DNA of 64,000 bases from a virus (taxonomy: Duplodnaviria > Caudoviricetes). The DNA lies in IMG/VR virus record IMGVR_UViG_2818991472_000001, positions 32,001 through 96,000 of that record. One strand, written 5' to 3'. Both the position numbers and the translations under genes were made by a program. The notes under the pieces are model-generated. The model was given only the letters and a program-made list of their open reading frames with translations, was not told the DNA's origin and searched no databases. Of the stretch, positions 41,024 to 58,805 are shown one piece after another (the stretch's first letter is position 1; each line of letters begins with the position of its first letter).

Positions 41024-41092
41024 GGCAGGTGGTCTCCTGGTGGGGCGGCAGGGTCGGCGGGCCTGGCAGTGGCCCGCCTTCTGCACCCCAAT

Positions 41093-41132
41093 CTAGTGCA
41101 CCGCTATGCGCATAGGCAAGAGGGTTCACTAG
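41093..41132 (-). promoter_or_regulatory. Palindromic early-promoter repeat A
   Basis: CTAGTGCACCGCTATGCGCATAGGCAAGAGGGTTCACTAG. Confidence 0.85.
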
Positions 41133-41449
41133 GATTGGCGGCGCCCCCTCACCCGGTCCACCGCCCGCTGCGCCGCGCCCTGCCCGTGCTCGCGGTCGAA
41201 CAGCCAGCCGTCGAACTCCGTCGCCCCGGGCCGCAGGTCCACCTTCAGCGGCCGAGCGGCCACGTACTCGAACTGGCCGTCCGGGACCTGCTCAAGCCAC
41301 CGGCGAGCCTGCTCGACCGGCACGTCCTCGGGCACGGCGCCCATTGCCGCGTAGACCAGCGCCACCTGGCCACCGCCCCCGCCCAGCCCCGCCTCGTTGA
41401 ACAGCGCGGCCAGGACCTCGGCCCGGTCCAGCCCCGTGATGTCGATCAT
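41129..41449 (-). CDS. Hypothetical conserved phage protein
   Basis: MIDITGLDRAEVLAALFN...FEYV..RPLKVDL...FDR.HG.GAA. Confidence 0.75.
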   Translation of the reverse strand: MIDITGLDRAEVLAALFNEAGLGGGGGQVALVYAAMGAVPEDVPVEQARRWLEQVPDGQFEYVAARPLKVDLRPGATEFDGWLFDREHGQGAAQRAVDRVRGRRQS

Positions 41450-42024
41450 GAACGGTCCATCTCCGTCTCGGTGCGGTGGCTGGCCCAGGCGGCCAGCGTC
41501 TCGAAGTCGTCGTCGGTCAACCCGGTGGCCGGGTCGACCAGGCGCAGCAGCGCCGGGGCCGCGTGCCGGTCGGCGACGAAGGCGCGGTCGGCGTCGGTCA
41601 CCTCGTCGTCCACCCAGGCGAACGGCCGCCCGGCGGCGTACTCCAGGAGCGCGGCCAGCTTCCAGTGCACCCCGCCCGGCCGGTCCTCCTCCGGCGCGTC
41701 ACCGACCGGCACGAGCGGCAGGTCCGGCAGCTGCTCCTCGCCGCCGACCAGGCCGACCGCCGGTCCGATGTAGCGGTTGGCCAGCTCGTTCCAGCTGGTG
41801 CACCACACCAGGTCGTACGGCAGTGCGCGCAGCCGGGCGCCGTGGCCGGGGTGCAGCCACACCTTCGGCAGCCGCACGTAGTAGGAGGGCTTGCCCGGGG
41901 TGCCGCCGCTGCGCAGGTGGGTCCAGCGGTGCGGCGTGTACCCGGCCGGGCGGCCCTCGGGCCGGGTGCCGTAGGCGTTCAGCGGGCCGTCGACGTCCAG
42001 GAAGAGCAGCGGGCGGTCAGCCAC
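41446..42024 (-). CDS. HAD-superfamily (Swiss-Army-Knife RNA-repair type) phosphatase
   Basis: LLFLDVDGPLN, LVWCTSW, WK, FAWVDD. Confidence 0.85.
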   Translation of the reverse strand: MADRPLLFLDVDGPLNAYGTRPEGRPAGYTPHRWTHLRSGGTPGKPSYYVRLPKVWLHPGHGARLRALPYDLVWCTSWNELANRYIGPAVGLVGGEEQLPDLPLVPVGDAPEEDRPGGVHWKLAALLEYAAGRPFAWVDDEVTDADRAFVADRHAAPALLRLVDPATGLTDDDFETLAAWASHRTETEMDRS

Positions 42025-42361
42025 GGCCAGCCTCCCGGGCGCCGTGCACGGCGGGCGGGGCAGCGGAGAGCAGCACGTTGTACCGCAGGTGGCTGCTCCG
42101 CTCGGCGAGCAGGCCGTTCAGCCTGGCGGCGGCTCCCTGGGCGACCTCCAGCAGGCCGCGCTCGCGGTCGGTCAGGCCGTCCGGGCCGATGGCGGGCTCC
42201 CGGGGCTCGAAGCCCTCGGCGCCGCAGTGGACGCAGCGCCAGCCCTCGCCGTCCGGCCCGGAGTGGGTGGTCTCGGTGTCGTGGTCGTAGGTGTCCCCGC
42301 AGACCACCCCCGCCCGGTCGTCGGCCAGGGCCTGTTCCAGGCCCTTCGGCGGGTATGTCAC
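42017..42361 (-). CDS. Small Zn-ribbon hypothetical protein
   Basis: AGGAGGAG RBS; WRCVHCGAE. Confidence 0.65.
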   Translation of the reverse strand: MTYPPKGLEQALADDRAGVVCGDTYDHDTETTHSGPDGEGWRCVHCGAEGFEPREPAIGPDGLTDRERGLLEVAQGAAARLNGLLAERSSHLRYNVLLSAAPPAVHGAREAGRG

Positions 42362-42410
42362 GGTGCTCCTCCTTCGAAGTGCTGTGTTGCTGAGTTAAGC
42401 ATCTCTGCGG

Positions 42411-42785
42411 TCAGCGCGGCTGCGCCTCGGTGATCGACCAGTCGGCGGCGGCCCAGGTGGTGGCGCCGGTGTCGGGGTCGGTGCTCGGTTTCCAGGCCAG
42501 CGGGCCGCCGTGGGCCTCAGCCTCGTGCCGGGCGCCGCTCAGGTCCCCGTGCCGGGTGTGCTCGGCGCCGCGCAGCAGCAGCACCCGGGGGCGCCGGTCG
42601 GCGGGGACGGCCACCACGGTGTGGGCGGAGCGCTCCTCCCAGCCCCAGGCGCCCGTCGTGAGCAGCTGCGCGCCGGGGGCCAGGGAGGCGGCCATCAGCG
42701 CGCTCTCGATGTCGGTCCCCTTCCACAGCTCGGTGCGGTCGGGTGCCAGGACGGCCATCATCCGGTCCGTCACTCGGTGAGTCAT
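42411..42785 (-). CDS. Hypothetical protein
   Basis: GAGGAG RBS upstream. Confidence 0.55.
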   Translation of the reverse strand: MTHRVTDRMMAVLAPDRTELWKGTDIESALMAASLAPGAQLLTTGAWGWEERSAHTVVAVPADRRPRVLLLRGAEHTRHGDLSGARHEAEAHGGPLAWKPSTDPDTGATTWAAADWSITEAQPR

Positions 42786-43041
42786 GATCGTTTCATCTCC
42801 TCGTGTCCGGCCACCGTAGTCGGCGGCCGGGTAGCGGGCGCGGGGTTTGTCCGGGCCCATGATGGGCGGGGCGGCCGACACTCCCCCTGGCGCCGGGTGG
42901 TGGCGGCGCAGCGGCTGGCCATACTGGCCCGACCGCCGCCGGGCCGGGCGTGAAGGCGGCGCAGCGGGCCCAGGCGGGCCCCGGGAACCTCCGCCGGGGT
43001 CCTGGGCCCGCCCACGCCCGTTGAGCGCCTAGCCTGGTGGC

Positions 43042-43209
43042 ATGACACCTACGCGCTTCTTGATGTGCCCCGAGTGCGGCGGACCGGCTCCGGTAGACCC
43101 GTTCAACCAGATGGGCCCGCACGACCAGCCCGACGGCAAGCCCTGCGTGATGTCGTGGGATGACGGGGGCCGGGCGTTCCTGGCCAAGGCGGACGCGGAC
43201 TCCGCCTGA
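43042..43209 (+). CDS. 55-aa Zn-ribbon protein, probably leaderless (not in ORF track)
   Basis: MTPTRFLMCPECGG...H....PC; TAGCCT -10 six bases before the ATG. Confidence 0.55.
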   Translation: MTPTRFLMCPECGGPAPVDPFNQMGPHDQPDGKPCVMSWDDGGRAFLAKADADSA

Positions 43210-43230
43210 GCCCTACGGAGGGCAGGGCCC

Positions 43231-43959
43231 TCACCGGCGCAGCGCCGCGAGCAGCTCGGTGTACTTCTCCGGCTGCTCCTCGGGCCAGACGCCGTAGCCG
43301 TTGCGGGCCTCGTTCAGGTCGTGGGTGATCGCGGAGTACAGGGCCAGGACGGCCGGGTTGTTGCTGATCTCGGAGCGGTCGGCGGTCCAGTCGAAGCCGG
43401 TGTCCTCCAGCCACCCGGCGATGATCATGGCGCGGGTCTTGGTCCGGCAGTCCATCGCCACGATGACGCCCGGGGTGGCGTCGGCGGTCGGCAGGGCGAC
43501 GGTCCAGGCCATCGGGGAGTGGTTCGAGGGCTTGCGGCGGGCGACGACCAGAGTGGCCGGGGCGGCCGGGCGCGGCGGCTTGGCGGCGGGCTGCTCCGGT
43601 GCGGGGTGCTCGGCGAGCAGGGCCTTCACCTCGTCCAGGGTGTCGTACGCCTTGAACAGGCTGCTCCCGCCCCAGGTGCGGGCGGCGGCGGCCTTGAGCA
43701 CGGCGTCCGTGGCGCAGCGGCCGGACTCGACGAGCAGGATCTTGTGGTCCTTGGGCAGCACGGCGGCCGTGGCGAAGGTGCGGCCGTCCGGTCCGCGCAT
43801 CGCCTTCACCGTGCCGTCGCGGCGCACCGAGGTGACCAGCGCCGGAGTGAAGGTGACGGCCTCGGAGGGCTGCTCCTGGTTGATGTAGAAGGCGCGGTGG
43901 ACCTCGCGGTAGACCGCGAGCTGTCCCCGGGTAGCGCGCAGCGGGGCGGTGGTGGTCAT
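43231..43959 (-). CDS. Hypothetical cassette protein
   Basis: Follows repeat 44002. Confidence 0.75.
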   Translation of the reverse strand: MTTTAPLRATRGQLAVYREVHRAFYINQEQPSEAVTFTPALVTSVRRDGTVKAMRGPDGRTFATAAVLPKDHKILLVESGRCATDAVLKAAAARTWGGSSLFKAYDTLDEVKALLAEHPAPEQPAAKPPRPAAPATLVVARRKPSNHSPMAWTVALPTADATPGVIVAMDCRTKTRAMIIAGWLEDTGFDWTADRSEISNNPAVLALYSAITHDLNEARNGYGVWPEEQPEKYTELLAALRR

Positions 43960-44001
43960 CGGTGTCTCCGGTTCTTGGCAGGGTTGGTGACAGGCAGGAA
44001 C

Positions 44002-44040
44002 CTAGTGCAACGCTGTGAGTATGCGCAAGGTGTTCACGAG
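44002..44040 (-). promoter_or_regulatory. Palindromic early-promoter repeat B
   Basis: CTAGTGCAACGCTGTGAGTATGCGCAAGGTGTTCACGAG. Confidence 0.85.
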
Positions 44041-44498
44041 AACGTGATGGCCGCGACCGCCTCCAGCGTCATCGGCCCGCGCTGCGCCACCGGCCGGGGA
44101 GCGGCCGACCGCCGGACCTCCCCCCGGTCCACGGACACCGCGTACGGCGGCTCCGGCAGGGCCCCGACGTCCCCCTGCACCCTGACGCGCCCGGCGCGCC
44201 ACTCCCCCTGGACCGCCCCCATCACCTGCGCCCAGTGCGCCCGCGCCTGCGGCAGTTGCCCCGGCCCGTACGGGTGCGCCATCACCCGGGCCGCCCGCGT
44301 CTCCCCCACCCGGGCGGAGATCCTGGTGATCCACTCCCGCCGCTCCCAGGCCGGGGCTCCGCCGGTCGTGGTGCGCACGTCGGCGGCCCAGTGCTGAACC
44401 AGGGTGCGCCACCCGTTCTCGTGCACCACGTCCACGGTGCGCAGCAGCGCGGCGGCGGGGTCGGGGCGGGCGGCGGTCTCGATCGGGTGGGGGCTCAT
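44034..44498 (-). CDS. Hypothetical protein
   Basis: Start MSPHPIE with GGAGG RBS. Confidence 0.6.
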   Translation of the reverse strand: MSPHPIETAARPDPAAALLRTVDVVHENGWRTLVQHWAADVRTTTGGAPAWERREWITRISARVGETRAARVMAHPYGPGQLPQARAHWAQVMGAVQGEWRAGRVRVQGDVGALPEPPYAVSVDRGEVRRSAAPRPVAQRGPMTLEAVAAITFS

Positions 44499-44671
44499 GG
44501 CAGGTCGTCCCTCCGTGGCAGGCGGCAGGCAGGCGGTGGGTGATGCGGATTCCGTCGCCGACTGGCAGTGATCGTGCGGAATCCGTGGCTCGGCCCTAGG
44601 GGGCGAGACGACGGAATCCGTAGATTGGGCTACGGATTCCGTCGTCGGGGGTGGCGGCCCGGACGGGGGGC

Positions 44672-44911: not shown

Positions 44912-45059
44912 GGCGAGTTCTCCAACTGGCTTGGCAGGGTTGTGAGTTGGCCGGACCGTGGCAGTGGTCGGCCGGTCCGCCCGGCGCTGCTCCGTGGCAG
45001 GGTGGCGCAGCGCCGGGGCGTGAACTGGCTTGCAGGGCTTGGCAGTTGCCCGGGTTGGG

Positions 45060-46068: not shown

Positions 46069-46134
46069 GAGGGCCTCCAGGGGGCCTACAGCGGCCGCTG
46101 CGCCCCGGTGTGGGGCGCAGCAGCGGCGCGGGTG

Positions 46135-46662
46135 TCAGGCGGTCGGCTCGGTGGCGCTGGTGGCGTCGGGGGTGGCGTCCGGGTCGGTGTCGGCAACGCC
46201 CGGGTACGTCCACTGGTTGGCGTTCTCGGGGAAGGGCCAGCGCAGCGCGGTCAGCTGGGCGCGGGTCTGGGGCGACAGGTAGAACATGCTGGAGAGGGTG
46301 TGCCCGGCGAACAGGTTGACCCAGGCCGGGGGGTCGACGGGCATCCGGCGCTTGCAGGAGCAGTAACCCTGCTCCTCGGGGTCGCACTCGGCGTCGTGCA
46401 GGGTGCGGTACTGCTGCGGGGCGGGGTTGACCAGGGTGACCAGGCGCCAATCCTGCACGGTGCCGCCCATGATGCTGGGCTTGCCGGTGTCGATGATCTC
46501 CCAGAGGCACAGGGTGCGGTTCTTCAGGTCGGCGTCGTCGGCGGCGGCGTCCAGGGCGTCCCGGACGGGGCCGAAGTTCATGTTGTCGGTGAGGGTGTCG
46601 CGGCTGAGGGTGGTGAGACGGAAGCCGGTGCGGATTCCGGCGGCGGGGGTGGTGGCGTTCAC
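46135..46662 (-). CDS. Hypothetical protein
   Basis: AGGAG RBS; H...C......CSC. Confidence 0.7.
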   Translation of the reverse strand: MNATTPAAGIRTGFRLTTLSRDTLTDNMNFGPVRDALDAAADDADLKNRTLCLWEIIDTGKPSIMGGTVQDWRLVTLVNPAPQQYRTLHDAECDPEEQGYCSCKRRMPVDPPAWVNLFAGHTLSSMFYLSPQTRAQLTALRWPFPENANQWTYPGVADTDPDATPDATSATEPTA

Positions 46663-46750
46663 GGTGGGCTCCTGAGGGGCTGTAGGGGGTGCTGGGCGGT
46701 CTGCGGGCCCCCGCTGCGCCGCGCGGGGCGCAGCGGGGGCTGTGGGGCTG

Positions 46751-47845
46751 TCAGGCGGCGTGCTGGGCGGCGTCGGTCTGGTCGTACGGGAGGGGGATGG
46801 GGGCGGGCAGGGTGCGGGTGGTCTCGGGCCACCCCTTGCGCCACTCCTCGACCACGGTCAGCACGATGGGGCCGGTGACGCCGTAGTAGGCGGCGAGCAC
46901 GCGCACGGCGTCGTCCTTGGTGGTCTGGGCGGTGCCGACGACGCACCCGGCGGTGCCCTCCTCGGCGTACCACTTGCCGTCTTCGGTGATCACGCAGCCG
47001 CCGAAGTTGGCGGAGGTGACCAGGCCCTTGCCGCGTTCGACCATGTCGACGGCGACGGCGGTGGTGGTCATGATCGCGGTGAGCGCGTCGGCGGCGGCCC
47101 GGTGGGTGGCGACGGTCTTGGCGCAGTCGGCGGCGGACTTCTCGGCCTTGGTGGCCACGGTGGTCCAGTGGTGGGCGCGGTCGTCGCCGGGGCGCTCGGC
47201 GAGGGCCCGGCGGTGGCGCTCGGCTTCGGCGGTCTCGCGGCGCTCCTGGTCGGCCCAGTGGGCGGCGCTGCGCTCGTGCTCGGTGCGGAAGCGCTCCAGG
47301 GTGGGGGTGTCGGTGACCACCATGATCACGCCCACCTCGTCCCGGGTCTTGCCCGCGTACAGGGTGATGGTGCCGCCGTTGTTGATCATGACCTCCCCGT
47401 GCTCGGCGCGGACGCGCTCCACCGCCTCCCAGACCTCGGCCGGGGTCTGGTGGGTGAGGGGGCGGGAGGTGCCGCCCCAGGTGTCGGCGTAGCCGTAGGC
47501 GGGGGCGGTGAGGTGCTCGCGGGTGACGGGGATGCCCTTGACGGGGCGCAGCGGGGTGCCGGGGGTCACGCGCAGCATGGGCACGTGGTAGGTGCTCTGG
47601 GCGCCCCGGTGCTGGGAGGTGCGTTCGACGTCGTAGCCGCGCTGCTCCAGGGCGGTGGCGATGTCGTCGAGGGCGGTGGCGTCGGTGCCCTCCCAGGTGA
47701 CGGCGACTTCCCCGGGGGCGGTCTGAGAGACCTGGTAGCCGGTGTGGGGGTTGCGCCGGATGCCCTTGTCCGTGAGTGCGGTGGTGGTGGCGAGTTGGCG
47801 GGAGATGGTGGCGGCGTGGGCGGTGGTGGCGGGCTTCGCGGTCAT
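46751..47845 (-). CDS. Multi-module cassette protein
   Basis: Start MTAKPATT after repeat 47893. Confidence 0.75.
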   Translation of the reverse strand: MTAKPATTAHAATISRQLATTTALTDKGIRRNPHTGYQVSQTAPGEVAVTWEGTDATALDDIATALEQRGYDVERTSQHRGAQSTYHVPMLRVTPGTPLRPVKGIPVTREHLTAPAYGYADTWGGTSRPLTHQTPAEVWEAVERVRAEHGEVMINNGGTITLYAGKTRDEVGVIMVVTDTPTLERFRTEHERSAAHWADQERRETAEAERHRRALAERPGDDRAHHWTTVATKAEKSAADCAKTVATHRAAADALTAIMTTTAVAVDMVERGKGLVTSANFGGCVITEDGKWYAEEGTAGCVVGTAQTTKDDAVRVLAAYYGVTGPIVLTVVEEWRKGWPETTRTLPAPIPLPYDQTDAAQHAA

Positions 47846-47892
47846 CTCGGTGGCTCCCTGGGCGGTGGTCGGTCGAACGCAACAAGGCCAAG

Positions 47893-47932
47893 CTAGTGCA
47901 CAGCGATGAGTATGCGCAAGCTGTGTCACTAG
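47893..47932 (-). promoter_or_regulatory. Palindromic early-promoter repeat C
   Basis: CTAGTGCACAGCGATGAGTATGCGCAAGCTGTGTCACTAG. Confidence 0.85.
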
Positions 47933-48012
47933 ATTGGCTGGCCGGGCCGGACAACAGGCCGCCCCGCTGCTCCCGTCACCAGGGGCGCAGCGGGGCGGCC
48001 ACCGCCACGGGC

Positions 48013-48624
48013 TCACTGCTCGCTCGGGTCTCCTGCTTCCTGCTCGAACACGTACGCCCGCCCGCCCACCTCGAAGATCAGCACGTCCTCACGGCTGAGG
48101 TAGTACCACTCCCCCGCCGACCGCCAGTCCACGAAGTCCGCCAGGCCCGTCAGGATGCCCATGCGGTCACGCCCCTCGTACTCGCTGCGGGCCCACGCCG
48201 CCACCGAGTCGAACACCCCCTGGTAGGCGTCCTCCGCGATCTCCTCCAGCTCCAGGGCCGTCACCTCGTGCTCGCCGTTGCGCTGCTCCACGAACAGGCC
48301 CATGGCGTTCACCGCGTGCTCCCCGTGCGCGTCCACCAGCTGCGCGACGGTCTCAAGCCACTGGTGCCCCTCCTCGGCAAGCACCTCGAACCCGTCCCGG
48401 CCCACCTCGGCCACGGCCGCGATGATCTCCCGCTCCCCCCGGGCCGCCCGGTCCGCCAGGGCGTAGCCGACCACCCCGAGGGAGTCCAGTTCCGCCAGCC
48501 GCTCCGTGTCGCCCGCCTCGGCCGCCTCGATGCGCTGCTCCGCGAACGCCCCGTGCACCAGCGGGTCACCCTCGAACTCGGCCAGCAGGCCCTGGATACG
48601 CGCGTCGCAGTCGAACTTGCCCAT
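48013..48624 (-). CDS. ardA: ArdA-like antirestriction protein
   Basis: Very acidic; C-terminal EDAYQGVFDS...WA...LADFVDW...GGRAYVF resembles the ArdA C-terminal domain. Confidence 0.65.
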   Translation of the reverse strand: MGKFDCDARIQGLLAEFEGDPLVHGAFAEQRIEAAEAGDTERLAELDSLGVVGYALADRAARGEREIIAAVAEVGRDGFEVLAEEGHQWLETVAQLVDAHGEHAVNAMGLFVEQRNGEHEVTALELEEIAEDAYQGVFDSVAAWARSEYEGRDRMGILTGLADFVDWRSAGEWYYLSREDVLIFEVGGRAYVFEQEAGDPSEQ

Positions 48625-48729: not shown

Positions 48730-49698
48730 CTAGGCCACCTCGGCCACCGGCTTGACCACCGCGACCATCAGCCGCTGCCACTTCGCCAGGATGCCGCCCG
48801 GGGGCACGTCCTCCAGGGTGATCACGCTCTCACCGCGCCCCTGCTCCCGGTACCCGGCCACCACCGCCGAGCGCACCAGCGCCACCGCCCACGCCCGGTC
48901 ACCGTGCTTGCTCCGGGTCGCGTGGGTGGGGAACTCCTCCCACACCCCCTCGAACAGCTCGCCCTGGGGCACCAGCGCCTCAGCGATGGCATCCGCGTCC
49001 GCCCGGCGCCGCTCCCCCTCCCGGTGCCAGTCCAGAATGGTCTGGTCCACCACGCGCAGCGCTGCGCCGTCGCGCCCCTCGATCAGCAGCACGCCGAACC
49101 CGGCCGCCTCCAGCGCCGCCTTAGCCTTGCCCACGGTGTCCGCGTGCCCCTCCGGCGCAGCGATGCGCGCCCCCTTGTCGTCGGAGAACGCCCGCTGGAA
49201 CGCCGCCTGGTTCTGGGCGCGGTAGTACCAGGACACCGTCACGGACGTGCCCCCGCCCTCACCCCGGCCGGGCGCGTCCTGCCGGAAGCCGTCGCTGTGC
49301 ACGCCGAAGAACCCTCCGGACTTGACGCTCTGCTCCAGCCCGGCCCCCTTCAGCACCCGGGTGATGGACCCCTTGACCGGCTCACGCACCGGCGCGGGCG
49401 CGGCCACCTCCACCACCGCCTGCTGCTCCCCGCCCTCACGCTGCTCCCGCTCGGCGCGGACCTCGGCAAGGGTGGCGTCCAGGGCTGCCTGGCGGTCGGA
49501 CTCGATGCCGGTGGCCGTGGTGAACCCGGTGTCGGTGAGGACGTAGCCGCCGTCCCCGGCGGCGCTCAGGTAGCCGTCGGCCGCGAGCGACACCAGGGTG
49601 CGCAGGTTGCCGGTGACGCGGCGCAGCGGGTTGTCGAGGGGGCTTTCGATCCCGGTGAGCAGGGCCTTGGACTTGGCGGGGCTGAGCTTGCGGGCCAT
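48730..49698 (-). CDS. Multi-module cassette protein (N-terminal wHTH-like)
   Basis: MARKLSPA...RTLVSL...GYL...VLTDTG. Confidence 0.75.
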   Translation of the reverse strand: MARKLSPAKSKALLTGIESPLDNPLRRVTGNLRTLVSLAADGYLSAAGDGGYVLTDTGFTTATGIESDRQAALDATLAEVRAEREQREGGEQQAVVEVAAPAPVREPVKGSITRVLKGAGLEQSVKSGGFFGVHSDGFRQDAPGRGEGGGTSVTVSWYYRAQNQAAFQRAFSDDKGARIAAPEGHADTVGKAKAALEAAGFGVLLIEGRDGAALRVVDQTILDWHREGERRRADADAIAEALVPQGELFEGVWEEFPTHATRSKHGDRAWAVALVRSAVVAGYREQGRGESVITLEDVPPGGILAKWQRLMVAVVKPVAEVA

Positions 49699-49742
49699 GG
49701 GGTCCTCCGGTGCTTGGCAGGGCGTTGGTGACAGGAAGAAAG

Positions 49743-49782
49743 CTAGTGCACCGCTGCGCGTATACGCAAGTGGGTTCACGAG
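49743..49782 (-). promoter_or_regulatory. Palindromic early-promoter repeat D
   Basis: CTAGTGCACCGCTGCGCGTATACGCAAGTGGGTTCACGAG. Confidence 0.85.
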
Positions 49783-49940
49783 ACTTCCCGGCGGGCCAGG
49801 GTGACAACCGGCGCCCCATCACGGCCGGTAACACGAGGTGGAGTCACCACCACGAACTATGACAATCAGTGACCAAAGGGGAAGGGCGCGCTACCCGGTC
49901 TCCCAGGTGCGCGCCCCGCTGTTGTGCCCCCGCTTCTGCC

Positions 49941-50736: not shown

Positions 50737-51903
50737 TCAGCGCATGGTGAGGATGTTGTCCCGGGAGGACATGATGGCGGGCTGGTCGGTGTCGGCGTTC
50801 TGAACGAGCCAGGCCCGGCGGCCGTGCAGGGTGGTGGTGTCCCGCAGGATGGCCGGGAACGAGCCGCCGCCCTGGAGCGAGACGACGTTGACCAGGGTGC
50901 CGCTGGGGAAGTCGGAGACCACCGGGGAGCACTCGGTGGCCAGCCACTCCGCGCCGCCGTCGTCGGTGACCTTGACGCGGGTGGGCTCGCCGTCGCGGTA
51001 GACCATGCGGGCCACCCTGCGGACGGTGCCATCGGCAACAGCGACCCGGGCATCCCGGGGGTAGTCGAAGTGAGCCGGGGTGGGGGTGGTGGGGTAGACG
51101 GCGAGCCCGGCCGGGCCGGAGACGGCGGCGCGCACGTACTCGTTGCGGGTGACCAGGTTGGTCTCGATGCTGGCCCGCCACTCCCGGTACGGGTCGTTGG
51201 TGAAGGCGTCGACGATGGCGCTCAGCTTGGGGCCGGTGACGCGGACGACGCCGGGGCCGCCGCTCTCGACGGTGCAGCCGGTCAGCCCGGCGGCGTCGAG
51301 CAGGTCGAGGGCGGGGCCGATGGGCGAGTGGCTGCGGTGGCCGACGCGGTCGGCGATGGGGCCGCTGTTGGGGGCGTCGGGCGCGGGGGTGGTGTCGGTC
51401 ATCTTGGTCACGGTGCCGGAGAGTTCGCGGATCACGATCACGTCGCGGCCGTCGTCGCTCTTCTGGCGGGTGACGGCGGCGCCGCGCCACACGGCGGCCA
51501 CGATCCGGGCGCGGACCAGGGGCGGGGTGATGATGCGGCCGGGCTCGGGGATGCCGTTGGCGGTGACGCTGGTGTTGTACCGGTTGGGGTAGGTGCCGGT
51601 GGCGGGGTTGCAGGCCATGGCGTCCGCGATGGTGCGCACGTGGTCCCTACGGGCCTTGCTCGCCTGGGCGTCGTCGTCACCGGTGGGGGGCTCCTCGGCG
51701 TGGCGGACGGCTTCGGCGCGCCCGGCGGCGGTGAGCAGCACGCGGCGGTTGGTGCCGGTGCCGTGCTCGAAGGCCAGGTCACGGCGGATGAGGGCGTTGG
51801 CGGTGCCCTTGGGGGCGTGGACCTCGTGGCCGAAGGCGGTGAGGGCGTCGAGGAGGGCGGTGATCATGGTCGGGGTGAGCTTGGCGGGCTTGTCCGTGGC
51901 CAT
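50737..51903 (-). CDS. Multi-module cassette protein (wHTH-like plus SH3-like modules)
   Basis: KLTPTM...TANALIRRDLA...LLTAAGR; after repeat 51950. Confidence 0.75.
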   Translation of the reverse strand: MATDKPAKLTPTMITALLDALTAFGHEVHAPKGTANALIRRDLAFEHGTGTNRRVLLTAAGRAEAVRHAEEPPTGDDDAQASKARRDHVRTIADAMACNPATGTYPNRYNTSVTANGIPEPGRIITPPLVRARIVAAVWRGAAVTRQKSDDGRDVIVIRELSGTVTKMTDTTPAPDAPNSGPIADRVGHRSHSPIGPALDLLDAAGLTGCTVESGGPGVVRVTGPKLSAIVDAFTNDPYREWRASIETNLVTRNEYVRAAVSGPAGLAVYPTTPTPAHFDYPRDARVAVADGTVRRVARMVYRDGEPTRVKVTDDGGAEWLATECSPVVSDFPSGTLVNVVSLQGGGSFPAILRDTTTLHGRRAWLVQNADTDQPAIMSSRDNILTMR

Positions 51904-51949
51904 GGTGGTCTCCAGTCCTTGGCAGGGTTGGGTGGTGACAGGAAGAAAG

Positions 51950-51989
51950 CTAGTGCACCACTTCGCGTATACGCAAGTGGTTTCACGAG
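51950..51989 (-). promoter_or_regulatory. Palindromic early-promoter repeat E
   Basis: CTAGTGCACCACTTCGCGTATACGCAAGTGGTTTCACGAG. Confidence 0.85.
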
Positions 51990-52035
51990 AGTGGGGCCGG
52001 GCGGCCCGGGGTGACGGGGCCGCCCGGCTGTCTAG

Positions 52036-52905
52036 TCAGTAGTCCAGGCCCCACGCGGTCATGCGCTCGGACCACTCGCCCAGCACGGTGTGCACGGCCG
52101 TCAGGTCGTCGTACGTGGCGGTGCCGTCGTCCACCAGGCCGAGCACGCTCATGCCCGCCATGTTGGCGTCGGCGATCTCCTCGCGGGTTTGCGCCCGGTG
52201 CTGGCGGAAGCCGGGCAGGTACTCGCCGTAGACGGTGAGAGCCACGTCGGCGACCGCGAACACCCACGACGTGTAGGTGCCCCACGGGCTGTGTTCGATG
52301 TCGTCCCGCATCATCTCGGCCATGATCGCGTCGTAGCCCGGGGTGCGGCCGGTCTCGGGGTGCTCGGGCAGGCGGGCCGCCGCCTTGTGCCACTGGGCGT
52401 AGCGGGCCATGGTGCGGAACGCGGCGGCGACGTCGTCGGTGGTCACCTCGGTGTCGGTGACGTCGTCGGTGTCGATCATGTCGAACACCATCGCGGCCGG
52501 GTAGGTGTCACGGTAGGCGTTGGCCACGACTGCCGGGGTGGCGTGCGCGGTGGTGTCGTCGAGCGCGGTCCCGGTCCGGGCGTAGTGCACGGCGCTCAGC
52601 GCGATGATCCAGTCGACGATGGTGTCGTGGTCCAGGTCGTTGGTGCGGATCTCGTCGATGAGCTCGCGGTAGCCCTCGGTGTTCCAGCCGACGCGGATGC
52701 CCTGGGGGGTGCGGTTGACGGTGGTCCCCAGGATCTCCCACCCGTCGGTTTCGATGCCGGGCCAGTCGGCGGCGGTGGGCTCGCTCGCGCCGCCGAAGTA
52801 CAGGTGGGTGTCGGTGGTCTCGCCGGGGCGGCCGATGACCAGTTCGACGTGCCAGCGGGCCTCGGACGGGGCGACCTGCGGGCGGGGGGAGGGCATGGCG
52901 GGCAT
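52036..52905 (-). CDS. Acidic cassette protein
   Basis: After repeat 52950. Confidence 0.75.
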   Translation of the reverse strand: MPAMPSPRPQVAPSEARWHVELVIGRPGETTDTHLYFGGASEPTAADWPGIETDGWEILGTTVNRTPQGIRVGWNTEGYRELIDEIRTNDLDHDTIVDWIIALSAVHYARTGTALDDTTAHATPAVVANAYRDTYPAAMVFDMIDTDDVTDTEVTTDDVAAAFRTMARYAQWHKAAARLPEHPETGRTPGYDAIMAEMMRDDIEHSPWGTYTSWVFAVADVALTVYGEYLPGFRQHRAQTREEIADANMAGMSVLGLVDDGTATYDDLTAVHTVLGEWSERMTAWGLDY

Positions 52906-52949
52906 GAGGGCTCCAGGGGCGTTCGGGTGCGGTGGTGACAGGAAGAAAT

Positions 52950-52989
52950 CTAGTGCACTGTCATGAGTATGCGCAAGACAGTGCACAAG
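52950..52989 (-). promoter_or_regulatory. Palindromic early-promoter repeat F
   Basis: CTAGTGCACTGTCATGAGTATGCGCAAGACAGTGCACAAG. Confidence 0.85.
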
Positions 52990-53041
52990 AATGGGTGCCG
53001 CCCCGTCGTCTCCCGGGGCGGCACCCTCTCTCTCCGCAGCG

Positions 53042-55879
53042 TCAGGCGGGGAGCACGGTCACCGTGATCTCGTCCTCCCGTTCGACCGCCCACCCAGCGG
53101 CCCGGAAGGCGGCCTCATGGGCCCCGGAGAGGGCGCGGGCGAGCTGCTCCCCCTCGCCGTCCGCCCAGACGTTGCACGGGGCGGTGACGCTCACCCGGTC
53201 GTGCAGCCTGGTCAGCTCGTCGGCCGGGGTGTTGTCCACGTTCACCGAGCCGTCGCGCAGGTGGGCGGGGAGCTGGGGGTAGACGCGGTGGCCGATGGTG
53301 CCAAGCTCGGTGTTCTCCCGGCTGAACCCGGCCCGCCACAGCACCTTGCGCGCCTCCACCACGGCCGGGGTGTCCGGGCGCAGGCCGTCCCGGGGATCGG
53401 TGAGGCTGCCGTCCGCCTCCACCGTGAGCCCGTAGCCGTAGCCGACCTGGGGCGCCAGGGTGCTGCTCTCCCGGGCGTTGAGGCCCTCGGCGCGCAGCGC
53501 GGCGACGGCCGCCCGGACCTTCTCCACCGGGGTGGCGTGGGAGAAGTTGACCAGGCAGTAGACGGCGGCGGTGGCGTGGTCGGGGATCGTGTACCGGGCC
53601 GGGTCGGAGCAGTGGCCGGGCATCCTGTCCGCCTTGACCAGGCCGAGGGTGGACAGGATGGAAGTCACCTTCCCTGCAAGGGAGTTGGGGCCGTCGCCGG
53701 GGATGATGTGCCAGACCATGTGGACGGTGCCGGTGCCCAGGGCGGCGGTGGCGGCGATCATGTCCGGCCTGCTGGCCACGGCGAGGAGCGAGCGGTTCCC
53801 GTAACGGGTCTTCAGCCACTGGTCGACCTGGGCGCCGGTGACGGTCAGCTCAGAGCGCTGCTTGCCGTCCAGGTAGGCGGTCTGGCGGTACATGGCGGCC
53901 GGGTCGGTCTTGACGGCCAGCCACTGGGCGCGGATGCGCTCGCTGTCGTCGGCCGCCGGGCGGCTCCACTCCCCCGTGCTGTTCTCGCCACGCTGCCAGC
54001 CGGTGCGGGTGAGGGCCTCGGCGTAGCGGGCGCGGCGCTCGGCCGGGTCGTGGTCGGTCTCCCAGCCCCTCGGGTGCTCGTGCAGGACCAGGAGGCCGGT
54101 GTAGGCGCCGCGCAGGTCGAAACTGGTCATGACGGTGAAGCCCTCGTGCTGCTCGCCCATGGGGGCGAAGCCCGCGCGGCTCAGCGCCTGGGCGGCGGCG
54201 TCGCGGTCGGCCTCGGCGCGGGCCTGCTGCTGGGGCAGGTCGCGCAGGGCGGCGAGCAGCTCGGCGGCGGTGGCCGCGTTGGCGGCCTGGCGGTGGGGAG
54301 CGGGGTGGCTGCGGTCGGTCAGCGCGTGCCAGCGCAGGCTGTCAGGGTTGCTGCTCTGTCGCCAACTCACCTCGTAGGAACGGCCGTTGGCGGTAGTGAA
54401 CAGCCACCAGTTCGACTCAGGGAACTTCGGGTTCATGGGGCGGATGGACTCGCCGTCGCCGACCAGGGGCATGGTGCGGACGATGCGCGGCACCTCGGGC
54501 AGAGCGCGGACGGCGGCGCGGTAGCAGACGTGGGGGAACTCGGCGCCCTCCTCGTGGGCGGTCCACCCGCCGGTGATCTCGTAGCCCTCCCGGCGGATGT
54601 GCTCGGCGACCTCGTTCAGCGTCACGGCCTCGGGGGTGGCGACGCCGTGACCGCCCACCTGCCAGTGGTTGCAGCGGCACACGCAGTCGAGGGCGATGGA
54701 GACGCCGACGAACGGGGACGCCTTGAACACGCGGACCTGCCGGGCGACGTGGTCGCAGGCGGGGGCGGCCGGACGGTGGGCGCGCGGCAGCGGGCGCGGC
54801 TGCACGGGGCCGGTGACGGCCTCACCCACGGTGGCGAAGGCGCCGAACGGCGGCTGCGGGACCACGGCGAAGGCGGGCTCAGGGTCGGCCACGGCCACGG
54901 GCGCGGGGGCAGCGTCGGGGGCCGAGGCGGGCTGCTCGAAGACGTCGACACCTTCGGTGACGCGGACGGCGGCCAGCGGCGCGCGGTCGAGGAGCTTGGC
55001 CACCTCGTCCAGGGCGGCCTGGCCGCGCTCGGCGGAGGCCCGGTAGGCGTCGCCGTCGCTCCGGCCGCAGGTCCAGGCGACCCGGACGCGGTTGCTGCCG
55101 CGCAGGCGGCGCAGGTACAGGCCGTCGGTGTCGAAGCCGCCGAGCTTGTCGGACTGGGCGAGCGTCAGGCTGGCCCGCTTCAGCGCGGCGCGGACGGCGG
55201 GGACGCTGAGCGCCGGGGCGGCGGGCGCGGTCTCGGGGGCGGGGGCGACGTCGGGCAGGTTCTGGGCGAGGGCCTCGGCGCGGTGGTAGACGGCGAGGTA
55301 CCCGTTCGGCAGGACGTGGACGACGTGCAGGCCCCTGGCGCGCAGGGCCTCGGCCATCGGCTCCAGGTCGATCCCGTAGCCGTGGACGGTGACGCAGCGG
55401 CGCTTGGTGTCGCTGGAGGCGGAGAAGCCGTGGCGCTTGGTGTCGCTGTAGCGGGGGAACTCGGCGGTGTCGAGCATGGCGGAGATGCTGGCGCCGGTGA
55501 TGCCGAACGAGCGGGCCTTGCGGCGGGCGGCCTTGGTGGCGCGCTCGACGCAGCGGGAGTCGGTGCAGGGCTGACCCTTGCGCAGGGCGTGGTGGTCGAG
55601 GTGGCCGTTGATCTTGCCCGCGTTCTTGACGGAGAGGGGGCAGGCGTCGAGGGCGGTCTGGTCGTAGAGCCAGGGGCGGTCGTACGGGTCGCGGGCCTTC
55701 AGCGGGGCGGCGTCGACGTCGTCGATCAGCGTCTTGGCCCAGGTGATGGCCTCCTTGGGCGTCATGGTGCGGTTGGGGGCGGGCACGAGGTGGTCGTTGA
55801 TCTTGATGATCGTCGGGTTGTACTGGTTGCCCTGGGGACGGGTGGCCTCGATGGTGCGGCCCTTGTGGGTGGTCTTCAC
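53042..55879 (-). CDS. Large multi-module cassette protein (about 945 aa)
   Basis: True start GTG 55879 (VKTTHKGR) after repeat 55929; several copies of the recurrent module. Confidence 0.8.
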   Translation of the reverse strand: MKTTHKGRTIEATRPQGNQYNPTIIKINDHLVPAPNRTMTPKEAITWAKTLIDDVDAAPLKARDPYDRPWLYDQTALDACPLSVKNAGKINGHLDHHALRKGQPCTDSRCVERATKAARRKARSFGITGASISAMLDTAEFPRYSDTKRHGFSASSDTKRRCVTVHGYGIDLEPMAEALRARGLHVVHVLPNGYLAVYHRAEALAQNLPDVAPAPETAPAAPALSVPAVRAALKRASLTLAQSDKLGGFDTDGLYLRRLRGSNRVRVAWTCGRSDGDAYRASAERGQAALDEVAKLLDRAPLAAVRVTEGVDVFEQPASAPDAAPAPVAVADPEPAFAVVPQPPFGAFATVGEAVTGPVQPRPLPRAHRPAAPACDHVARQVRVFKASPFVGVSIALDCVCRCNHWQVGGHGVATPEAVTLNEVAEHIRREGYEITGGWTAHEEGAEFPHVCYRAAVRALPEVPRIVRTMPLVGDGESIRPMNPKFPESNWWLFTTANGRSYEVSWRQSSNPDSLRWHALTDRSHPAPHRQAANAATAAELLAALRDLPQQQARAEADRDAAAQALSRAGFAPMGEQHEGFTVMTSFDLRGAYTGLLVLHEHPRGWETDHDPAERRARYAEALTRTGWQRGENSTGEWSRPAADDSERIRAQWLAVKTDPAAMYRQTAYLDGKQRSELTVTGAQVDQWLKTRYGNRSLLAVASRPDMIAATAALGTGTVHMVWHIIPGDGPNSLAGKVTSILSTLGLVKADRMPGHCSDPARYTIPDHATAAVYCLVNFSHATPVEKVRAAVAALRAEGLNARESSTLAPQVGYGYGLTVEADGSLTDPRDGLRPDTPAVVEARKVLWRAGFSRENTELGTIGHRVYPQLPAHLRDGSVNVDNTPADELTRLHDRVSVTAPCNVWADGEGEQLARALSGAHEAAFRAAGWAVEREDEITVTVLPA

Positions 55880-55928
55880 GGCAGGTCTCCCGGTTGCTCG
55901 GGGGCGGTCTTCCTTGGCACCGCTGAAT

Positions 55929-55968
55929 CTAGTGCAACATAATGAGTATGCGCAAGATGGTTCACTAG
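55929..55968 (-). promoter_or_regulatory. Palindromic early-promoter repeat G
   Basis: CTAGTGCAACATAATGAGTATGCGCAAGATGGTTCACTAG. Confidence 0.85.
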
Positions 55969-56043
55969 ATTCGTTCTGGAGACGCCTCGGCGGCCGGGCC
56001 CGGTAAAGGGGCTCCGGCCGCCGAGGGCAGGAAGAACCGCAGG

Positions 56044-58722
56044 TCAGGAGGTCTCCTCCACGGCCTCCACCGCGCCCCGGTTCTGGGTGAACGAGACGAT
56101 CCGCACCAGGCCGACCGCCTCCAGGTACTCGACGTCGGCCGCGTGGACGCTCGCGGGCTCGTAGGCCCGGCGCTTGCCGCCCTTGCCCGGCTTGTCGACC
56201 CAGTGGACGGCCCGGCGGTTGGCCCGGATCGTCTCCAGCAGGGTCTCCTGTGCCTTGGTCAGGTGCTGGGGCAGCTCGGCAGCCAGGTCGGCCGCCAGCG
56301 CGGCGACCTCGTCGGGGGTGGCGACCCAGACCCGGCGAGCGGCGTTCGGGGCGATGTCGCCCCGGGACAGCGTGGGGCGGCCAGTGACGCCGTCGACCCA
56401 CACCCGCCGGGGCAGCTCCGCCAGCGGGTTCGTGAACCGGTCCCGCTCGACCTTGCCGTACTCGTCCGTGTCGACCCAGGTGAGCAGCTTGGCCGCCGCC
56501 GCGTCCCGCACGTGCAGGTACGCGCCGTACTTGCTGGTGTTCAGGGCGATGGCGACCGCCGTCGCGACGTTGATCAGCGGCCGGAGCCCGGTGCCCTCGT
56601 CGACCTTGCTGCCGGTCACCGCCGCCACCACGGCGGACAGCTCGACATCCTCGGGCTTGTAGCGGTGCACGACCTGGTCGGCGGTCAGGTCGCCCCCGGC
56701 GACCAGCTCGGCGAGGTAGCGCAGGCCGTTCGGCTTGTCGTGGCCGGGCACCTCCAGGGCGTCCAGCCACACCTCGAACTGCGCGCGGATACGGGTGATG
56801 CCCAGGCCCAGCATCACGCGCTGTTCCTCGGTCTGCGCGTCCAGCACGGCCCGGGTGAGCTGGCGCAGCCGGTCGCCGCAGGCGACGGCCTTGGCCTCCC
56901 AGTCCGTTTCGAACGGGCGCTGCTCGGGGCGGGGCGGGTCGAAGCTCTCCGGGGCGGGCGGCATGGCGCGGCCGTCCGGGGCAGCCATGATCACCACGTG
57001 CTCGGCGCCGCCGCCGCGCAGCTCCTCGGCGCGCACCTGGGCGTCGTCCCACACGTAGTCGTCGGCGCCGGTGTGGCGCTCGCCGCCGCTGGTCCAGGCG
57101 AGCACGTAGCGCTTACCGGCGGGCAGCGCCGAGGCCGGGGCCGTCGCCCACACCACGGCACTGCTGGCGACGACGTCCCGCCAGCCGTAGCCGCGCAGGG
57201 CCTGGGCGTAGGCGTTCAGCTTGTGGTCAACGCTGTTCGGCTCCTCGCCCGGCTGGGCGCCCATGACCCGGGTGCCGTCGAGGAACTCAAAGACGCGGAC
57301 GTCGTACTCGCTGCCCTCGACGTAGAAGCCGCTGGCGGCGGGGTTGCCGGTGCGGATGTCGTCGCCCACCACGCGCACCGCGCGCTGACCGTCGTCCGTG
57401 AGCACGTGGACGGCGGCGCGCACAGTGGCCAGGCGGTCGAAGCGCGGGGAGGTGCCCTCGGTGATGTTGGTGTCGGTGGGCGGGGTCACCCACAGCAGCT
57501 GCGACGAGGCCATCTCGTCGAAGGTCCACCCGGCGGCGGCCAGGGCCTGGCCGTACTCCCTGAGCTTGGTCAGGGCCTTGCGGTCCTTGGTGTCCCGGAC
57601 CCAGGTCAGCTCACCGGCGGCGTAGTCGTAGACGGCGATCCGGTCGTCGCGGCGCTGGACGACGAACCCGGAGGTCTGCTCGAAGTCCTCGGGGTCATCC
57701 GTGACGGGGGCGGGGTGGTGCCCAGCGGCGGCCAGCACGCGGACGGCGGCCTGCACCACGGCGTCGTCGGCCTGGTCCGGGTAGCAGCCGTGGGCGGTGC
57801 CGCCGTGGACGACGACCGTCCCTTCGATGGGCTCGGCCACGCGGACGGCCAGGACGGTGGCGGGCTGCTGGGGCACGGCGGTGTTCTCCTCGGTGGTGTC
57901 GGGCTTGGTGGTGGCGCTGGCGATCCAGAACTTCTTGCTGGGGTGGTGGAGAGTGTCGGACATGTGCTCGGTGTAGGTGGCCAGGCCCTTCTCCACCAGG
58001 GACTGGACGGTGCGCAGGCTGATGCCGTAGCCCGCGTGAAGCTCGCCCTCCTGGAGGCGCTTCCACGCGTCGGCCTGGGCCGGGGTGAGCGTGATGCCGT
58101 CGGGGGTGGTGAACGTCTCCGGCTTGGCCTTGACGGGCTCGGGACGGGTGCTCGTGCCGGTGACCTTGATGATGTGCTGGTCGGTGCGGTCGTAGACCTC
58201 GGCCGTCCAGCCGTCGGCCCGCAGGGCCTGCACGAACTCGCCGATGTCGTCCTGCAGGGCCTCGCTGACGCCGACGTCGACGCTGTCCAGGCGCTCGAAC
58301 GCGAAGTACGCCTTCGGGCCCTTCCCGGCGGCCTCCAGGGTCTGAACGACCCGGGCGACGACGGGGGCGCCCTCCACGCGGGGGCGCGGCTCGGCGAGCG
58401 CGGTGACCTCCAGCGCCCCTTCGCGCGGGGACTTCTCGTTGTGCTCGACGTCGAAGAAGTCGGAGAGGTACGCGGCGTAGTCGGCCGCGAACTCCCGTGC
58501 GATCCGCTCGCTGCTGCCCAGCCCGACCTTGTCCAGGTGAGGGCCCCAGTAGAGGGAGACGTAGGAGCGGGCCCCCGCGCCACCGCTGCTCAGGCGGGCG
58601 CCGGGCTTGACGGAGGGGTGGGTGTAGCTGGACTCCACCTTCACGGAGACCTGGAACCCGGCCCGCTTCAGGCGGGTCTGGACGAGGGCGACGGTGATCG
58701 TGGGCTTCGTGGTCTCGGGCAT
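56044..58722 (-). CDS. Large multi-module cassette protein (about 890 aa)
   Basis: Start MPETTK after repeat 58766; tandem internal module duplication and two wHTH-like units. Confidence 0.8.
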   Translation of the reverse strand: MPETTKPTITVALVQTRLKRAGFQVSVKVESSYTHPSVKPGARLSSGGAGARSYVSLYWGPHLDKVGLGSSERIAREFAADYAAYLSDFFDVEHNEKSPREGALEVTALAEPRPRVEGAPVVARVVQTLEAAGKGPKAYFAFERLDSVDVGVSEALQDDIGEFVQALRADGWTAEVYDRTDQHIIKVTGTSTRPEPVKAKPETFTTPDGITLTPAQADAWKRLQEGELHAGYGISLRTVQSLVEKGLATYTEHMSDTLHHPSKKFWIASATTKPDTTEENTAVPQQPATVLAVRVAEPIEGTVVVHGGTAHGCYPDQADDAVVQAAVRVLAAAGHHPAPVTDDPEDFEQTSGFVVQRRDDRIAVYDYAAGELTWVRDTKDRKALTKLREYGQALAAAGWTFDEMASSQLLWVTPPTDTNITEGTSPRFDRLATVRAAVHVLTDDGQRAVRVVGDDIRTGNPAASGFYVEGSEYDVRVFEFLDGTRVMGAQPGEEPNSVDHKLNAYAQALRGYGWRDVVASSAVVWATAPASALPAGKRYVLAWTSGGERHTGADDYVWDDAQVRAEELRGGGAEHVVIMAAPDGRAMPPAPESFDPPRPEQRPFETDWEAKAVACGDRLRQLTRAVLDAQTEEQRVMLGLGITRIRAQFEVWLDALEVPGHDKPNGLRYLAELVAGGDLTADQVVHRYKPEDVELSAVVAAVTGSKVDEGTGLRPLINVATAVAIALNTSKYGAYLHVRDAAAAKLLTWVDTDEYGKVERDRFTNPLAELPRRVWVDGVTGRPTLSRGDIAPNAARRVWVATPDEVAALAADLAAELPQHLTKAQETLLETIRANRRAVHWVDKPGKGGKRRAYEPASVHAADVEYLEAVGLVRIVSFTQNRGAVEAVEETS

Positions 58723-58765
58723 CAGGGGCTCTCCGGTGGTAGCGCAGGTGGCGACACCGGTGAAT

Positions 58766-58805
58766 CTAGTGCACACCAATGCCCATACGCAAGTTGTTTC
58801 ATTAA
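58766..58805 (-). promoter_or_regulatory. Palindromic early-promoter repeat H (degenerate right arm)
   Basis: CTAGTGCACACCAATGCCCATACGCAAGTTGTTTCATTAA. Confidence 0.75.

Follow-up and report, generated by a model that had tools for sequence, protein, structure and literature searches.

Promoter early stem-loops (PeSLs) of T4-type myoviruses are sigma70-like early promoters with stem-loops that can fall between the -35 and -10 hexamers or overlap them, and they lie in hyperplastic, ORFan-rich regions (Arbiol et al. 2010, PMC2839356; Comeau et al. 2014, PMC4122927). They act both as promoters and as terminators and recombine into mini-circles, and their consensus differs between phage pairs (PMC2839356, PMC4122927). 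Here, we address a family of ~40-bp repeats on a 64,000-nt stretch of viral DNA (positions 32,001 to 96,000 of the IMG/VR record IMGVR_UViG_2818991472_000001; hereafter, the window), which belongs to a 155,259-bp contig, C8, in an assembly of nine contigs and 10.09 Mb. Eight copies, A to H, form an array within the window. On the basis of the sequence, we propose with moderate confidence that the repeats are a phage-specific promoter family that would be read by the host polymerase, with an operator-like dyad and a PeSL-like layout, one promoter for each transcription unit.

The likeness to PeSLs extends to several traits. Many near-identical promoters of the housekeeping-sigma type are each joined with a stem-loop; the upstream stop codon, the Shine-Dalgarno sequence (SD), and the next start codon fall within the block; the elements are concentrated in ORFan-rich hyperplastic regions (HPRs) that vary between related phages; and the consensus differs by phage. 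Regarding the stem-loop within or next to the promoter, in six of the 11 copies on C8 the embedded dyad gives a better fold than shuffles, and separate strong hairpins are present at copies C, E, F, and G, and probably at D. The PeSL analogy drawn in the original prediction was therefore apt, as sigma70-like promoters with stem-loops in ORFan-rich hyperplastic regions are what has been described (PMC2839356, PMC4122927). However, the host is actinobacterial and the phage lineage is not T4-like (its large terminase, TerL, is ~33% identical to that of Cluster C mycobacteriophages), the effective terminator is mostly a separate GC-rich hairpin upstream, and the embedded dyad is operator-like, with sequence-conserved arms and a conserved mismatch. 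Mini-circles and breakpoints at the repeat are features of PeSLs, whereas here a copied promoter-leader module was observed, together with reordered fragments in a relative whose TerL is 80% identical (hereafter, the 80% relative). In its working the element appears to resemble PeSLs, but it does not belong to them by descent; the label of an undescribed system was too strong for what seems to be a variant of PeSL-like promoter cassettes. The layout of a mobile regulatory cassette, with a promoter and a hairpin before fast-changing ORFans, has been published for T4-type phages and would thus be extended to large actinobacterial phages.

Repeated operators offer a second comparison. The C1 operators of P1 are multi-copy repressor sites of an extrachromosomal phage. 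The stoperators of Cluster A mycobacteriophages are asymmetric sites of 13-14 bp that are bound by a monomer, and most of them are not promoters (PMC9283540, PMC6550527). As in both systems, in which a short phage-specific sequence is repeated 10-30 times, the present repeats keep one orientation to transcription, occupy short gaps between genes close to stop and start codons, and differ in specificity between related phages. Two traits of an operator regulon were also found, namely a conserved dyad that overlaps the promoter and three families at a syntenic place that do not cross-match. In contrast to stoperators, each of the present copies carries both promoter hexamers together with a split dyad, for which the binding protein is putative. 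In Cluster K mycobacteriophages, start-associated sequences and their extended partners (SAS/ESAS) are found; the SAS extend over the ribosome-binding region, and a translational role has been proposed for them (PMC3203893). SAS and ESAS are likewise conserved elements repeated upstream of many actinophage start codons, some with inverted-repeat partners, but the present element is located 43-70 nt upstream and has promoter geometry.

The repeat family and its promoter geometry

The original prediction placed eight ~40-bp repeats at 41093, 44002, 47893, 49743, 51950, 52950, 55929, and 58766, and a repeat search of the window (family D2) returned all eight. A strict version of the pattern had six exact matches in the window and none in 100 shuffles, and a profile built from the eight copies re-found A to H at nhmmer E-values of 1e-14 to 1e-18. 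Profile and motif scans brought the family to 11 copies on C8, with copies I (C8 99014-99059, minus strand), J (C8 116734-116779, the sole plus-strand copy), and K (C8 123909-123954, minus strand) outside the window. No convincing copy was found by the profile search in the other eight contigs of the assembly, and exact-motif scans of viral, genome, and metagenome contig collections gave single chance matches only, in unrelated and mostly low-GC DNA. In a 46-column alignment of the 11 copies, the consensus on the gene strand reads nnT-CTAGTGAAC-N4-TTGCGY-ATACKC-N6-GTGCAC-TAGNTT, and the columns T8, G9, T17, T18, G19, C20, A23, T24, T36, A39, C40, T41, A42, and T46 are invariant. The conserved arms occupy columns 4-12, just 5' of the -35 hexamer, and columns 35-43, which abut the -10 hexamer.

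All 11 copies keep the spacing TTGCGY-N18-TAG(A/C/G)TT, which fits TTGnnn-N18-TAnnnT, with T17/T18/G19 of the -35 and T41/A42/T46 of the -10 among the invariant bases. Motifs derived from mapped start sites of Streptomyces coelicolor are TANNNT for the -10 and NTGACC, with a conserved TTG, for the -35 (PMC4895711); as the invariant bases match these motifs, the element would be a Streptomyces promoter of the housekeeping type. A plot of GC content at third codon positions by frame indicated that the entire 39-64 kb of the window is coded on the minus strand, and each of the 11 copies points the same way as its downstream gene. Copies A to H lie 43-70 nt upstream of a start codon bearing a GGAG-type SD; in copies I and J, the -10 hexamer lies 7 and 5 nt before the ATG without an SD, which is the geometry of a leaderless mRNA. 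Copy J, on the plus strand, stands before a plus-strand gene; thus, the orientation of the element follows the gene, as expected of a promoter. These results agreed with the original prediction in the minus-strand reading TTGC(G/C)(T/C)-N18-TAG(A/C/G)TT and in the uniform orientation of A to H at 43-70 nt from a minus-strand start codon, and the promoter fit and the co-orientation support its suggestion that promoter-like elements split the region into units. The elements are compact, are probably strong Streptomyces promoters with a likely control site, and may serve as genetic parts.

From these features, we infer promoter activity, a sigma factor, a binding protein, and early timing. In the proposed mechanism, the host RNA polymerase with a housekeeping (HrdB-type) sigma factor would read the element, and the 11 copies would head as many transcription units in the portion of the genome that is hypervariable and rich in ORFans. 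The dyad, with CTAGTGAAC 5' of the -35 hexamer and GTGCAC flush with the -10 hexamer, would be the site of a putative phage-encoded regulator, which would switch the whole promoter set on or off together, and a separate GC-rich terminator hairpin would insulate most units from upstream transcription.

Unit layout, shared leaders and counterparts in related phages

The eight copies of the window all lie on the minus strand. Copy A (41090..41135; -35 TTGCCT, -10 TAGATT) precedes a 193-aa gene at 40442-41023, and its 5' CTAG contains the TAG stop of the upstream gene. Copy B (43999..44043), with a 39-nt core, -35 TTGCGC, and -10 TAGGTT, precedes a 242-aa gene at 43231-43959, and the TGA stop of its upstream gene sits in GTGAAC. 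Copy C (47890..47935; -10 TAGCTT) precedes the gene at 46751-47845, copy D (49740..49785) a 322-aa gene at 48730-49698, copy E (51947..51992) a 388-aa gene at 50737-51903, and copy F (52947..52992) a 289-aa gene at 52036-52905. Two large orphan genes follow copies G (55926..55971; 945 aa, 53042-55879) and H (58763..58808; 892 aa, 56044-58722).

At C, E, F, and G, perfect GC-rich, terminator-like hairpins of 12-15 bp and -30 to -52 kcal/mol were observed between the upstream stop codon and the element (z-scores of -2.2 to -6.4; -4.9 to -6.4 for E, F, and G alone). On the minus strand, the hairpin before C (47957..48000) lies 3' of the upstream stop codon and has a 14-bp stem followed by UGUUGU, and that before F (52993..53026; z -6.4) has 13 pairs followed by ATTCTT; those before E (51996..52028; z -4.9) and G (55985..56028; z -5.6) are likewise GC-rich. 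A separate hairpin is also probable upstream of D. A promoter and terminator scanner based on the Escherichia coli consensus was uninformative for the GC-rich DNA of this phage, yet it picked the hairpin upstream of F. No separate terminator-like hairpin was found at A, B, and H, where the element overlaps or abuts the upstream stop codon. The position of the hairpins between stop codon and element gives a unit layout of terminator, promoter, leader, SD, and gene.

Several copies also have a common leader, as originally predicted, and this holds for B, D, E, and in part F. In D, the leader (49693..49739, minus strand) reads TTCTTCCTGTCACC...CCCTGCCAAG...SD...ATG, and the same module precedes B (43954-43998), E (51896-51946), and in part F. 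The homology between B and D covers 92 nt at 83% identity, from the 5' end of the element to just past the ATG, and that between D and E covers 163 nt at 79% identity. Because the block from the element to the start codon is common to B, D, and E (partly F) although the genes are unrelated, the promoter-leader unit has been copied from one cassette to another, a process also proposed for PeSLs. Within the leader, a CCCTGCCAAG or CCCGCCA(A/G)G box lies 10-20 nt 5' of the SD (window 43960-43990, 49699-49730, 51904-51935, and 55880-55920); it is common to all three related phages compared here (in the 80% relative, at L037/L038) despite their differing promoters, and it may be a translational or RNA-binding signal.

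The third of these phages is contig G318:C2 (151,251 bp), whose TerL is 72% identical to that of C8. Genes g1-g57 and g132-g157 are collinear between C8 and G318:C2, with amino-acid identities of 40-87%, and g58-g92 of C8, within which all of A to H lie, have essentially no homologue there. In the 50.7 kb of the 80% relative that were compared, what is shared is limited to two short fragments and the N-terminal 300 aa of the 945-aa gene, which form a separate gene in the relative; these pieces stand in changed order. Such mosaic gene content, together with the copied promoter-leader module, fits the idea that the repeat may serve as a recombination joint.

Counterparts of the element were found at the syntenic place in both relatives. 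In G318:C2, there are 10 copies of T(A/T)GACA-(G/A)CGCACTG-NN-CAGTACGC-TAGGTT (the left half is also given as GCGCACTG), most of them preceded by a terminator-like hairpin; they are located downstream of a shared regulatory module (XRE-HTH/DUF5753, DUF397, and HATPase_c_2 genes), and their half-sites are adjacent within the spacer. In the 80% relative, at least five strong and 3-4 weaker copies of TAGCGYAAnnCTG-TGTACGCATC-CAGnAnTGCGCTA-(T/C)nGT were observed, with the left arm before the -35 and the right arm running into the -10, as in the present phage. Cross-searches among the three element profiles gave no matches. The promoter geometry and the bases just 5' of the -10 (the RGTRCRC/TA boundary, RGTRCRC|TA) are common to the three families, whereas the arms and the spacing differ. 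A promoter core that is kept while the arms are phage-specific fits a promoter with the site of a phage-specific regulator. With architecture and position kept and arms changed, the three related phages offer a natural system for the co-divergence of promoters or operators with their regulators.

A WhiJ-like module adjoins the array at 63150..64000 and beyond (L040:5150-7420). It comprises an HATPase_c_2 gene on the minus strand (63150-63650) and a divergent XRE-HTH/DUF5753 gene on the plus strand (starting at ~63868, L040:5868, and reaching beyond the window end), followed by a DUF397 gene. The trio is found at 33-37% identity in both relatives and is among the few HPR modules common to all, and the XRE-HTH/DUF5753 gene itself is ~33-35% identical between the phages. 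By its position, this trio is a candidate master regulator of the array.

Inverted-repeat arms and competing explanations

The element had been described as an imperfect palindrome whose arms change together, and this part of the original prediction was upheld only in some copies. In the 11-copy alignment, 69.7% of the cells pair in register, and the in-register covariation score was 0.162 compared with 0.117 +/- 0.021 in shuffles, a value reached by 12 of 500; slid controls scored much lower. We also used a gap-tolerant test, in which each left arm was paired with its own right arm and with those of the other copies, bulges being allowed. Pairing was stronger between cognate than between non-cognate arms (p 0.0004-0.001 with 10 copies, 0.002-0.005 with all 11), and the p-value weakened to 0.024 without F and to 0.046 without E and F. 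The energies of chimeric folds gave the same direction for cognate over non-cognate arms (p 0.006 with RNA parameters and 0.025 with DNA parameters). The covariation is thus real but carried by a minority of the copies.

Folding of the single-stranded DNA revealed the same heterogeneity. Copies C, E, F, and K clearly outperform their shuffles (z-scores of -3.3 to -4.5): the arms CACAGC/GCTGTG of C pair with one bulge (z -3.3), ACCACTT/AAGTGGT pair in E (z -4.3), and F has perfect 10-bp arms, GTGCACTGTC/GACAGTGCAC (z -4.5). The gain is modest in A and J (about -2.1), and B, D, G, H, and I, five of the 11, fold no better than shuffles (z +1.0 to -0.65), with no hairpin in B (+1.0), a weak one in D (-0.65), and values of 0 in G and in H, the left arm of which is degenerate (TTAATGAAA). 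Over 58 nt, D and E differ at three positions (95% identity), and each of these differences raises pairing in E. Loops are ~13 nt, the energies range from -2 to -12 kcal/mol, and an A10/G37 mismatch is kept in nine of the 11 copies. In the relatives, nine of the 10 copies of G318 fold no better than shuffles and only the equivalent of K folds; among the eight copies of the 80% relative that were folded, four had z-scores of -2.8 to -9.5 and four of -0.75 to -1.5. One of the four copies of the 80% relative that fold (L026:21389-21487; merged R80 21390-21440, minus strand) is a palindrome that pairs perfectly over ~18-20 bp around an 8-nt loop, and its inner arms are copy-specific. It encloses a TAGACA-N17-CATAGT promoter 6 nt before the ATG of a leaderless gene on the minority strand, at the place of copy J.

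Taken together, the copy-specific complementarity of the arms is real in about half of the copies, and some process makes or keeps such palindromes; this could be selection on structure, or it could be quasi-palindrome correction, in which template switching seeded by the conserved arms perfects a palindrome. As the folds are heterogeneous both here and in the relatives, the hairpin cannot be required for the basic function of the element, and the conservation of the arms in sequence, with the mismatch retained, argues for reading of the sequence rather than pairing. The claim that a hairpin or cruciform is itself the selected feature is therefore unsupported as a general property of the element, as the fold is not universal, the mismatch is conserved, and the arms fit a protein-binding site. 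We also considered whether complementarity of an arm to that of the next neighbour could mark the integration of cassettes. Two adjacent elements of the 80% relative hinted at this, but the signal is inseparable from the low diversity of the arms, and by eye none was seen in this phage.

Several observations count against a promoter family under a phage operator. The half-site centres lie ~31 bp apart, which is unusual for a simple dimeric repressor, and the -35 TTGCGY matches TTGACA at only three of six positions. The XRE-HTH/DUF5753 gene is a positional candidate only, and its own upstream region is without the dyad. Furthermore, a plain operator explains neither the pairing of the cognate inner arms nor the 20-bp perfect copy-specific palindrome at one promoter of the 80% relative.

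The repeats might instead be full dual elements of the PeSL type, in which the stem-loop attenuates or terminates read-through RNA and the block of ~45-90 bp provides homology for the gain, loss, and copying of cassettes. We consider this possible but unlikely. Architecture and setting match those of PeSLs; no dedicated terminator accompanies A, B, and H, which reach up to or into the upstream stop codon; the promoter-leader-ATG module before unrelated genes (B/D, 92 nt, 83%) is bounded by the 5' end of the element and the ATG; and the content of the array is wholly unlike that of G318 and has only reordered fragments in common with the 80% relative. However, the weakest folds belong to B and H, in which the hairpin would have to supply the terminator, and the copies that fold best (C, E, and F) already follow a strong dedicated hairpin. 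In addition, no U-tract follows the element, and no indel breakpoint was placed at the repeat, as neither relative has neighbouring cassettes in common with this phage and the sole other assembly is identical over the 14.8 kb compared.

A promoter gated by structure, which must extrude or avoid extruding as a hairpin or cruciform (e.g., silent on a supercoiled plasmid-prophage and open on injected DNA), would account for the better pairing of cognate arms (p 0.002-0.005), the three D/E differences, the perfect 10-bp arms of F, and the copies of the 80% relative with stems of 15-20 bp and copy-specific inner arms (z -4.9 to -9.5). We nevertheless regard it as rather improbable, because no fold above shuffles was found in five of 11 copies here, four of eight in the 80% relative, and nine of 10 in G318, the A10/G37 mismatch is conserved, the covariation drops to p 0.046 without E and F, and quasi-palindrome correction by template switching could give the same pattern without selection. 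Large loops and bulged stems generally disfavour cruciform extrusion; with loops of ~13 nt, bulged stems, and only -2 to -12 kcal/mol, extrusion is unlikely here. The hairpin promoters of phage N4, with stems of 5-7 bp and loops of 3 nt, are read by a giant virion RNA polymerase. They resemble the present element in that a promoter is coupled to an inverted repeat with a stem that differs in sequence from copy to copy, but the analogy, which the original prediction had raised, fails on the ~13-nt loops and the standard -35 and -10 hexamers. In a related and still more doubtful scheme, palindromic promoters that enclose the -35 and include the -10 would extrude or be bound on supercoiled prophage DNA and thus be silent, and would be open on injected DNA, with the cores acting as joints of cassette exchange; if true, this scheme would explain the covariation within copies, the perfect 20-bp palindrome of the relative, and the mix of perfect and chimeric-looking copies.

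It is very improbable that the repeat, rather than being a promoter, is transcribed from further upstream as an RNA signal, for instance a site of processing or antitermination or an operator of translation. As RNA, some of the copies can fold into a hairpin of -13 to -19 kcal/mol, and at A, B, and H nothing separates the element from the upstream gene; however, a strong terminator-like hairpin separates the upstream gene from the element at C, E, F, and G, copies I and J leave 5-7 nt and no SD before the ATG, the invariant bases fall on the -35 and -10, and the families of the relatives keep the -35/-10 geometry and change the arms. Integron attC sites lie 3' of promoterless cassettes, all fold, and need IntI. 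The co-oriented array of unknown-gene cassettes split by bulged imperfect palindromes recalls them, as the original prediction had noted, but we give almost no credence to folded recombination sites of this kind, because the elements are at the 5' ends of genes with a complete promoter, five of the 11 copies do not fold, RYYYAAC/GTTRRRY cores are absent, and no integron-type integrase adjoins the array, the sole Phage_integrase match on C8 being weak (E 3e-5, below the cut-off) and ~10-36 kb from copies A to I.

The hypervariable region and its replicon

The proposed promoters of the array occupy a hyperplastic region rich in ORFans. No family was assigned to 19 of 20 array proteins in Pfam, 10 of 10 in PHROGs, and 10 of 10 in NCBIfam; relatives of the cassette proteins were found neither in 40 related genomes nor in a set of 5.8 billion proteins or in viral contigs, and the sole paralogues within the array are g79 and g81. 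The 945-aa (53042-55879) and 892-aa (56044-58722) orphans are each without a family and each have their own promoter copy. The 892-aa protein matches only itself in the 5.8-billion-protein cluster set, its tblastn search against phages returned nothing, and neither orphan had a usable match in the ESM Atlas, the models of which were of low confidence. A gene at 48013-48624 was considered as ArdA-like and received no support from Pfam, PHROGs, or NCBIfam. The elements would delimit a regulon of about 30 unknown genes, which are good candidates for functions in host takeover or anti-defence.

In a megablast of the array, there was no match among phages and one match, of a 645-bp gene, among plasmids. 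The gene at 46135-46662 (175 aa) is 84% identical in DNA (match window 46116-46760) to a hypothetical gene of S. viridifaciens pKVP1, a linear plasmid of 1.7 Mb, where the homologue adjoins a transposase. This match points to the exchange of a single gene between phage and plasmid.

C8 has a GC content of 69.6%, compared with 73% for the chromosome, and its proteins include matches to a baseplate wedge, minor tail proteins, a virion protein, and TerL. The baseplate wedge, minor tail, and TerL matches identify C8 as a phage; it is a myovirus-like Streptomyces phage and probably an extrachromosomal phage-plasmid. By TerL, the closest named phages are Cluster C mycobacteriophages, Rhodococcus phage E3, and Phrappuccino, at ~31-33% identity. 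The same phage is present in a second public assembly, GCA_039529535.1 (L041), on a contig of 155,356 bp with 100% identity over the 14.8 kb compared (C8 79136-93903). One end of this contig falls within the array, so that the two contigs are permuted relative to one another, which would fit a molecule that is circular or circularly permuted. TerL relatives of 67-80% identity were found on contigs of 151-158 kb in at least 12 Streptomyces assemblies (S. yangpuensis, S. albidoflavus, S. cellulosae, and others). A TerL search of 166 genomes of the same genus gave no match, and among 400 genomes of the family only G318 carried it. These relatives look like a widespread family of large phage-plasmids, distant from the Cluster C mycobacteriophages.

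A different motif, CTGTY-N20-23-AAGRGGYG, has 18 copies on C8, all on the minus strand, and one in the other ~9.9 Mb. Seventeen of the 18 lie at 16-61 kb of C8 (C8 16293-60565), the structural and lysis region, 13 of them in the window at 445-28565; one copy directly precedes the TerL gene (C8 130459-130493), and none was found within the A to H array. As the structural and lysis genes carry this motif and the array does not, the genome is split into promoter classes. The CTGTY motif is a candidate late-promoter class, and the 40-bp element appears to mark a separate, non-structural class; the label "early" for the array region is a reasonable reading of this division. No Sigma70_r4 match was found on C8 at E <= 0.01, and PF00940 (T7-like RNA polymerase) had no match in the genome, with control genomes likewise silent. 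A candidate phage transcription factor is a small conserved protein of the replication block (C8 133289-133681; homologue L027:5198-5581), for which a relative gave a weak match to Sigma70_r4_2.

Elsewhere on C8, two TACTCATGAGTA palindromes surround a TGGAGG spacer at C8 109480-109531 (L024:1480-1531) and occur nowhere else in the genome. A link between these palindromes and the 40-bp element was considered and dropped, the common ATACTCAT core being short and nothing further having been found. The palindromes lie just 5' of a weakly integrase-like (Cre-like) gene (Phage_integrase, E 3e-5).

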